Positions 29,159 through 29,501 of a stretch of 64,000 bases of DNA are shown in pieces. The notes under the pieces are model-generated. The model did no database searches. It saw only the letters and a program-made list of their open reading frames with translations, and had not been told where the DNA came from. The position numbers and the translations under genes are program-made. The DNA comes from an uncultured virus (IMG/VR IMGVR_UViG_2512564001_000011) (Duplodnaviria; Heunggongvirae; Uroviricota; Caudoviricetes), in IMG/VR virus record IMGVR_UViG_2512564001_000011; one strand, 5' to 3'. How positions within the stretch are numbered: the stretch's first letter is position 1; each line of letters starts with the position of its first letter.

Positions 29159-29430
29159 ATTGTCAAAAAAAGTTCTTGTATTATAAGGCTTAAAGCGACC
29201 TCCCCTTCTGTATCTTATAGGGCGGTGAAGGAGCGAAGCGACTGAATCGCCTTTGTGAACGGTCACTCGGAGGGGTCTTGTCTTGTGGCTGCATGATTTT
29301 GCACAAAAGTGCATGGATTCGCATAAATTTGCACAAGTTTTTGCCCATCTAAAATCACCGAAAAGGCCAGTACTGGCGTACGCTGAACGGCATTGTGCAT
29401 CTGCATAAAAAACGACATATTTAGCGGGCA

Positions 29431-29449
29431 GGCGTGGCGGGGCTACCAC
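29431..29449 (+). other. P2/186-family cos (cohesive-end) site
   Basis: GGCGTGGCGGGGCTACCAC, 15/19 to P2 cos GGCGAGGCGGGGAAAGCAC; preceded by TGCACAA repeats and TGCATAAAAA...GCGGGCA, followed by TGCG. Confidence 0.75.
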
Positions 29450-29501
29450 TGCGATTTTTTATGTATTTTTCTTTGTTTACAAAGCATTGAAAAAAAGTAA
29501 T

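Follow-up and report, generated by a model that had tools for sequence, protein, structure and literature searches.

A complete P2-family cos region of the helper type lies at positions 29290–29462 (+ strand) of the 64,000-nucleotide stretch of DNA analysed here (the window), on a circular phage-plasmid that is unrelated to P2-like phages. Judged by sequence comparison, this is a real P2-family cos region, and an ectopic, intact-looking copy of the cos of Arsenophonus-lineage P2-like phages. We regard it as about an even prospect that the region is a working heterologous cos, which would let the terminase of a P2-like phage-plasmid in the same strain package this replicon in its neighbour's capsids.

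The window strings together replicons from Arsenophonus nasoniae strain aPv: part of paPv10, the whole of paPv11, paPv12 and one more. Comparisons drew on complete public plasmid records for this strain (PLSDB). The circular phage-plasmid paPv11 occupies 13660–45246 and matches its 31,588-bp record (NZ_CP123515.1) at 99.996–100% identity, rotated such that window position 19663 is base 1 of the record. Positions 1–13659 belong to the presumed helper, paPv10 (NZ_CP123514.1; 33,818 bp), as assigned from ORF order, lengths and offsets (5544–6620 has the length of gene D); this part holds the plasmid backbone, ogr, D and tail genes, and the cos and terminase of paPv10 lie outside the window. The replicon joints fall at 13659/13660 and 45246/45247, and a 933-aa ORF spanning 13660 (12479–15280) is a joint artefact that cuts the paPv10 tail-fibre and paPv11 capsid genes. 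The 16.8-kb paPv12 fills most of 45247–64000; at 45347–62160 it carries two genes with colicin-like tRNase bacteriocin domains, a PBSX-family terminase large subunit, an integrase and three Rpn genes, together with internal repeats (48765–49156/56643–57050 and 52826–54599/57155–58924).

According to RefSeq annotation and Pfam, paPv11 is a phage-plasmid of the HK97-head/Mu-like-tail kind, with an HNH/TerS-like/TerL/portal/capsid head module, a Mu-like contractile tail and lysis genes. Its circular record combines these virion genes with plasmid replication genes, namely a Rep3_N/Rep3_C initiator (15703–16464) and two other genes, one RepL-like and one rep-like. The replicon's own packaging module occupies 16461–19145 (− strand) and consists of TerL (16461–18161), a TerS-like gene (18174–18545), an intergenic interval (18546–18791) and HNH (18792–19145), recognised by Pfam as TerL_ATPase/TerL_nuclease, Terminase_2 (weak) and HNH, respectively; an own cos of paPv11 near 18700 is plausible. 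Three replication-initiator cassettes lie within the late operon or at its border (15481–16464, 36382–37355 and 28657–29606), the Rep3 gene being accompanied by roughly 22-bp iterons (15481–15614). A coiled-coil ORF inserted between baseplate genes (33287–33886, + strand) contains 87-bp tandem repeats of 89–93% identity (33431–33774) and varies in length among the sister plasmids.

The heterologous cos region has the expected parts of the P2 family in the family's order, all on the + strand. A block of TGCAT/TGCAC/CGCAT repeats, TGCATGATTTTGCACAAAAGTGCATGGATTCGCATAAATTTGCACAAG (29290–29337), lies about 100–140 nt left of the nick, and is followed by a spacer palindrome, GGCCAGTACTGGC (29365–29377), that aligns with the family consensus CGCCAGTGCTGGCG, the columns of which are at least 80% conserved in the regions among the matches listed. 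The left-flank box, TGCATCTGCATAAAAAACG-N9-AGCGGGCA (29396–29430), is nearly invariant in the P2 family and abuts the predicted nick site at the 19-nt cohesive-end core (cosN equivalent), GGCGTGGCGGGGCTACCAC (29431–29449), directly after which stands TGCG. Upstream of the core, 29401–29430 reads CTGCATAAAAAACGACATATTTAGCGGGCA, and the flank box can also be read as TGCATAAAAA...GCGGGCA ahead of the core. The box pattern TGCAT-N-AAAA-N-CG-N9-G-N-GGGC-N fits exactly at 29402–29430, directly 5′ of the core, although this fit is no test of the pattern, which was also used to collect the family's cos regions. The core follows the P2-family form GGCGNGGCGGGG plus 7 nt, as do those of P2, 186 and P4; the form likewise occurs in 119 unique viral cos regions among the matches listed, its first 12 nt being fixed by the search pattern. 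A degenerate version of the core pattern found one site in the 64-kb window and none in 100 shuffles. The first-pass annotation had described this core, the TGCG behind it, and the repeats and GCGGGCA box before it just as they are found here, and its count of 15 of 19 core positions shared with the ends of P2, and 15 of 19 with those of 186, agrees with the database records.

Alignment with the cos junctions of P2, 186, P4, ENT90 and pro483 showed 29290–29462 to be collinear for some 170 nt, from the TGCAT repeats through the palindrome and flank box to the core and a GCG behind it. This bears out the assignment to the P2 family made in that annotation, and the collinearity extends to the Arsenophonus plasmids paPv10 and pArsFIN13. 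Equivalent TGCAT repeats are present in P4, 186, ENT90, pro483 and paPv10. A blastn search of 29150–29620 against 50,697 phage records (2.3 Gb) returned five records: pro483 and ENT90, with two accessions each, and one Arsenophonus plasmid record. Specifically, 29395–29453 matches the cos interval of ENT90 (E 5e-7) and of pro483 (E 1e-7), and these matches fall between the replication gene A side and the portal gene. This interval is the position of cos in the P2 family according to the sections of Rousset et al. 2022 (PMC9122126) consulted here. The window cos does not occupy such a place between gene A and portal gene Q; it lies between the RepL-like gene and the paPv11 tail-fibre gene (29603–30739, − strand; Pfam Collar domain), and is therefore an ectopic copy rather than the cos of a P2-like genome. 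It is non-coding, upstream of the RepL-like gene and away from the paPv11 terminase gene, on a 31,588-bp circle whose terminase belongs to a different family; the first-pass annotation was correct in placing it in non-coding DNA on a non-P2 circular phage-plasmid.

The arrangement recurs in public sequencing data. Among Logan contigs from 21 public runs, which as contigs cannot show molecule ends, the window cos with both of its flanks was recovered without a single difference in three of four runs (X2, X15 and X17; two studies). A joint of 29252 to 29498 in run X1 was considered as a deletion variant and rejected, being the cos-less second cassette of paPv11 mapped onto the first.

The closest relatives of the window cos belong to the presumed helper and its counterpart in strain FIN, pArsFIN13, both of which are P2-like phage-plasmids with P2 late and early genes plus RepA, ParA and HU. 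The co-resident P2-like phage postulated at first pass is thus represented by paPv10, which is complete-looking by Pfam: gpP-type TerL (Terminase_5/6N/6C), gpM (Phage_term_smal), portal, P2-family capsid, GPO scaffold and GPA. In both plasmids, cos lies between gpA and the portal gene, with a cargo gene intervening (Rpn in paPv10; an M85 peptidase in pArsFIN13), and the core is GGCGCGGCGGGGCTACCAC, then TGCGATTTTTC. The window core agrees with theirs at 18 of 19 positions, the sole difference being T in the window versus C at core position 5, where A, T, C or G occurs across the 119 unique viral cos regions among the matches listed. Over 29290–29470, identity to the cos of Arsenophonus P2-like phage-plasmids is 83–84.5% (E 4e-47 to 2e-49); the alignment with the resident P2-like cos that had been proposed beforehand as a check gave, for paPv10, the same 18 of 19 core positions and 83% identity across some 180 nt. 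The right arm (core position 6 to 14 nt beyond the core) of the window copy matches paPv10 at 27 of 28 positions, and true Arsenophonus sites at 27 and 25 of 28. The CTACCAC variant, which causes the lower match to P2, is the local lineage's own, and was found only in A. nasoniae and Ca. A. triatominarum (six loci; one genome per species, 185,579 species). The window copy shares the flank box, palindrome and repeats with the true cos of paPv10 and pArsFIN13, and equals them in its score of 40 of 44 columns conserved among the matches listed; it differs in being ectopic, in one extra 10-nt repeat unit, and in about 15% divergence of the left arm. Relative to paPv10 cos, its flanks are about 16% different in addition to the inserted 10-nt unit, which lies in the repeat block.

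The paPv11 family comprises four plasmid records, and the site is accessory within it. In paPv11 and paNv_CAN15, the cos is 100% identical over 181 nt, and a P2-type cos was not found in the other two family members, pArsFIN14 and paNv_UK13. Both of the latter lack a 933-bp lineage-specific segment of paPv11 containing the RepL-like gene and the cos (28560–29492); pArsFIN14 has 558 bp in its place. Because these cos-less sisters retain a TerL-TerS-HNH module that is 93–94% identical to that of paPv11, the cos is not needed by paPv11's own machinery. Their strains, FIN and UK, nevertheless carry an intact-looking P2-like plasmid. The same comparison bears on the idea that paPv11 cuts this site as its own cos with its HK97-type terminase and HNH nuclease, a reading we consider nearly excluded. 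Although this is the only strong cos-like motif recognised in paPv11, sisters with the near-identical module do without it, as does pArsFIN15, which has annotated HNH, P27-family TerS and TerL genes in a module with no detectable nucleotide similarity to that of paPv11. Moreover, the terminase families differ: TerL_ATPase/TerL_nuclease in paPv11 versus Terminase_5/6N/6C plus Phage_term_smal in the P2 type.

The cassette around the cos has an origin of its own. The RepL-like winged-helix replication gene (28657–29166, − strand; RefSeq CDS 28657–29139) has a weak Pfam RepL match (E 0.0016; 18.4 bits, below the cut-off of 20.3) and shows about 75% nucleotide identity to the sole CDS of 1.4–3.4-kb plasmids of E. 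coli, Salmonella, Klebsiella and Enterobacter. On the other side of the cos, a conserved non-coding element (29492–29606, + strand) recurs in 624 plasmid records, and most of 14 that were sampled are 1.5–9 kb in size. An inverted copy at 36382–36495 (self-match 89–90%) adjoins the second rep-like gene, such that two of the three initiator cassettes of paPv11 share this small-plasmid element. It is probably a single-strand initiation or origin element, and may resemble the ColE1 primosome site. From these relatives, the RepL-like cassette appears to be a captured small-plasmid replicon. The second cassette (36382–37355), in which the rep-like gene is of the HTH_36 type and is annotated RepL in its pArsFIN14 counterpart, has a cos-less spacer, as does the cassette of pArsFIN15 (NZ_CP038627.1; compared at 6376–6466): in both, the same conserved flanks enclose a spacer of ~91 nt. 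The existence of these cos-less copies indicates that the cos is a separate replacement of the cassette spacer, a 238-bp segment (29254–29491, + strand) standing where the cassette otherwise has roughly 91 nt of A-rich spacer. Similarity to phage cos stops at the limits of the functional cos region, and the cos is, on this comparison, a discrete module set in a plasmid replicon. The alternative raised at first pass, a captured mini-satellite carrying RepL and cos together, therefore stands in part: the RepL-like cassette probably does derive from a small plasmid, but the cos is a separate replacement of its spacer. A mobile RepL-plus-cos mini-plasmid was also sought and rejected, since no small Arsenophonus plasmid with both was found; the 3.9-kb paIh plasmid and the 16-kb plasmids carry the rep gene without cos.

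Copies of the site elsewhere in Arsenophonus allow its integrity to be judged. Of 39 plasmid records with a match to the 181-nt element, 36 are from Arsenophonus. Strain aPv alone has copies on five plasmids: paPv10 (the cognate site), paPv11, paPv9 (34.5 kb, with T4SS and TrfA), paPv1 (145 kb) and paPv2 (104 kb). Copies on ordinary plasmids (32–226 kb; strains aPv, FIN, UK, CAN and aIh) sit in a recurrent ProQ/FinO-Rpn-cos-HU-Rep-ParA backbone, where the cos segment and the Rpn gene have the opposite relative orientation to that seen in paPv10. All seven of these backbone (class B) copies that were aligned have CTACTAC-TGCA instead of CTACCAC-TGCG; a 1-nt core deletion is present in five of the seven, and the repeats are lost in two (paPv2 and pArsFIN9). 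The window copy, unlike class B, sides with the phage copies on each diagnostic feature. A hybrid origin by joining at cohesive ends was considered: the right arm is class A-like (27/28 versus 22/28), but the left arm is about equidistant from all copies (77–87/98), and the idea was dropped for want of a clear crossover.

P2-family cos regions were also collected from IMG/VR with a pattern spanning the left flank and core bases 1–12, yielding at least 121 stretches, and 44 columns were conserved at 95% or more in 120 unique regions among the matches listed, 27 of the 44 being fixed by construction. For the regions among the matches listed, the window copy, paPv10 and pArsFIN13 each score 40 of 44 on these columns, a degraded P2 relic on pArsFIN2 scores 39 and the seven plasmid-backbone copies score 33–37. 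Differences between the window copy and paPv10 fall at 2 of 44 conserved columns versus 30 of 126 others (one-sided Fisher p 0.0025), or 2 of 44 versus 20 of 116 without the 10-nt indel (p 0.027), in a test that mixes in changes of the helper lineage and uses a partly circular column set. Such depletion is what purifying selection would give.

The main rival to a working cos, which we hold to be less likely but far from negligible, is an inert relic left by recombination. The mobilome of A. nasoniae is a mosaic, and a piece of cos from some P2-like element, or from a plasmid backbone that bears one, would have recombined into the RepL-like cassette, where it would undergo no useful cutting, and its intact look would reflect youth or luck. 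Cos copies can evidently persist unpackaged as relics, because many carriers (104–226 kb) exceed a 33-kb capsid and five of seven aligned backbone copies are core-deleted; the occurrence of many degraded copies on ordinary plasmids, with their lower scores among the matches listed, weakens any automatic inference of function. The absence of the site from two of the four sister plasmids points the same way, as does the extensive sharing of repeats among A. nasoniae mobile elements noted in the portion of Frost et al. 2020 (PMC7157526) consulted. The helper itself may be defective in aPv and aNv_CAN. The tail-fibre gene of paPv10 (8649–10038) differs from that of pArsFIN13 by a 1-nt indel that splits it into 138 and 329 aa, possibly a true defect but possibly an artefact of assembly, and the P2-like element of aNv_CAN lies within a 148-kb plasmid, where IS elements break it up next to the portal gene. 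Against a relic, the copy is not recent, its left arm being 83–87% identical to every other copy, and yet it retains all the family-conserved positions that the true phage copies keep (40/44, for the regions among the matches listed), with differences depleted at conserved columns. In addition, the homology stops where the functional cos does, which would be unexpected for a random recombination tract.

Packaging by the P2-like terminase is the most likely function of the site, on the strength of cosmid precedents and of the size of paPv11. At 31,588 bp, paPv11 has 93% of the length of paPv10 (33,818 bp), in keeping with the earlier suggestion that the 31.6-kb circle would fit a P2 head. P2 is said to package monomeric circles (Pruss/Calendar; Bowden and Modrich). 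A statement to this effect was not found in PMC4856287. Plasmids with a P4 or P2 cos are cut and packaged by the P2 terminase as single lengths, according to the part of PMC2231350 consulted, which supports packaging of monomers, and cosmids matching the helper genome in size are reported to pack best in the corresponding part of PMC9942202. Alongside the observed homology, family-level integrity, accessory status, helper presence and size fit, we propose the following course of binding, cleavage, packaging and transfer. In the late phase of paPv10, the terminase that this helper encodes (gpM plus gpP) would bind the TGCAT repeats, palindrome and flank box on a monomeric paPv11 circle, and staggered nicks around 29431/29449 would generate 19-nt 5′ ends. 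The 31.6-kb DNA would then be threaded into P2-type capsids with a capacity of about 33.8 kb; in a new cell, the ends would anneal and the circle would be re-established via the plasmid replicons of paPv11. Several observations count against this proposal: the flank divergence and 10-nt insert, the two cos-less sisters out of four, and the possible helper defects (the aPv tail fibre and the aNv_CAN IS elements). A further weak point is that paPv11 lacks an Ogr/Delta homologue to switch on the helper, with PF04606 having no match in six-frame translations of paPv11 and one in paPv10.

An intact site could instead work against the P2-like phage, as a decoy that titrates or misdirects the terminase of a rival when phage-plasmids in one cell compete, or as a hotspot where recombination at cos ends shuffles neighbouring cargo; both roles are suggested by analogy, and we consider them quite unlikely. 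Two virion-encoding plasmids do share one cell, and their tail fibres have similar C-termini (74% nucleotide identity between window 12487–13102 of paPv10 and 29611–30235 of paPv11), which suggests from sequence that the two phages may use the same receptor. Regions adjacent to cos are diversity hotspots in P2 and P4, as stated in the excerpts of PMC9122126 and PMC8628076 consulted, and cos copies on either kind of replicon have Rpn nuclease genes next to them, in one orientation or the other. However, no Sid-, Psu- or Ppi-like interference gene is annotated near the site, the missing Ogr/Delta homologue speaks against this role as well, and a single cos on a low-copy plasmid would be a weak sink.

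In part, paPv11 resembles several known systems. P4 and P4-like satellites likewise combine a plasmid-capable replicon with a helper cos of the same core type, flank box and TGCAT repeats, and P4-like elements are packaged by P2 gpM/gpP via a helper-type cos (PMC9122126, in the sections consulted). However, P4 has no virion genes and manipulates its helper by Delta, Epsilon, Sid and Psu, whereas paPv11 has a full set of head, tail, lysis and terminase genes and would need no capsid remodelling, being helper-sized. We therefore rejected paPv11 as a P4-like satellite: PF04606 is absent, sid, psu and integrase are lacking from the RefSeq annotation, and structural genes are present. Engineered P4/P2 cosmids (P4cos-5/-8, pACK57 and the P4 cosmid) join one P2-type cos to an unrelated replicon, as described in parts of PMC2231350 and PMC9942202, and the paPv11 cos similarly stands beside a small-plasmid replicon; those constructs are man-made, 5–12 kb in size and free of phage genes, in contrast to the natural, 31.6-kb paPv11, itself a phage. 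Cos-type islands of the SaPIbov5 class and cf-PICIs carry a copy of the helper cos and so enter helper capsids, according to the portion of PMC5052747 consulted, but such islands are integrated, small, and without their own terminase and tail (cf-PICIs lacking tails), whereas paPv11 is extrachromosomal and structurally complete.

More cf-PICI-like than paPv11, though without a P2-type cos, is the 16-kb pArsFIN15 (NZ_CP038627.1; 15,977 bp). This plasmid and NZ_CP123539.1 are 16-kb circles whose only virion genes are a head and packaging module; they encode HK97 protease, portal, connector, HNH, TerS, TerL, VapE primase-helicase, Rep, a RepL-like protein and a toxin-antitoxin pair, and pArsFIN15 is a capsid-forming, satellite-like plasmid.

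In the literature searched, we found no description of a structurally complete phage-plasmid with the packaging signal of an unrelated co-resident phage; the related work found concerns P4-like satellites, cos-type and capsid-forming PICIs, engineered cosmids and size-matched staphylococcal plasmids. The term 'cos site' has no occurrence in the available text of the paper on the 'hypercomplex' genome of A. nasoniae (Frost et al. 2020, PMC7157526). Cos piracy as such is already known from satellites without virion genes (P4 and cos-type PICIs) and from engineered cosmids, and the present finding would be important only if packaging itself were confirmed. Should the site work, (i) a helper/pirate pair need not consist of a phage and a satellite, in that two full phages can share capsids, (ii) phage-plasmids would have another way to spread horizontally, and (iii) plasmid exchange would have a concrete mechanism in a heritable symbiont of insects that harbours 12–17 or more extrachromosomal elements. 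An experimental test is practical, since A. nasoniae is culturable and transformable (PMC6771839, in the part consulted).

A broader extension, which we hold to be unlikely though worth stating, is that the P2-like phage-plasmid serves as a shared vehicle in A. nasoniae. Its cos would have been copied onto co-resident replicons, and those of the 31–36-kb class (paPv11 and perhaps the T4SS plasmid paPv9) would be packaged as natural cosmids, leaving paPv11 with two exits, in an HK97-type capsid or in a stolen P2-type capsid. If true, such a packaging commons would help to explain the unusual number and size clustering of the symbiont's extrachromosomal elements. Outside this symbiont, 120–216-kb plasmids of Klebsiella, E. 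coli, Citrobacter, Enterobacter and Providencia contain a 77-nt, 92% match to a P2-type cos, on its core/left-end side, where the plasmid records annotate no feature; most of these plasmids are 204–216 kb, and some are typed as conjugative.
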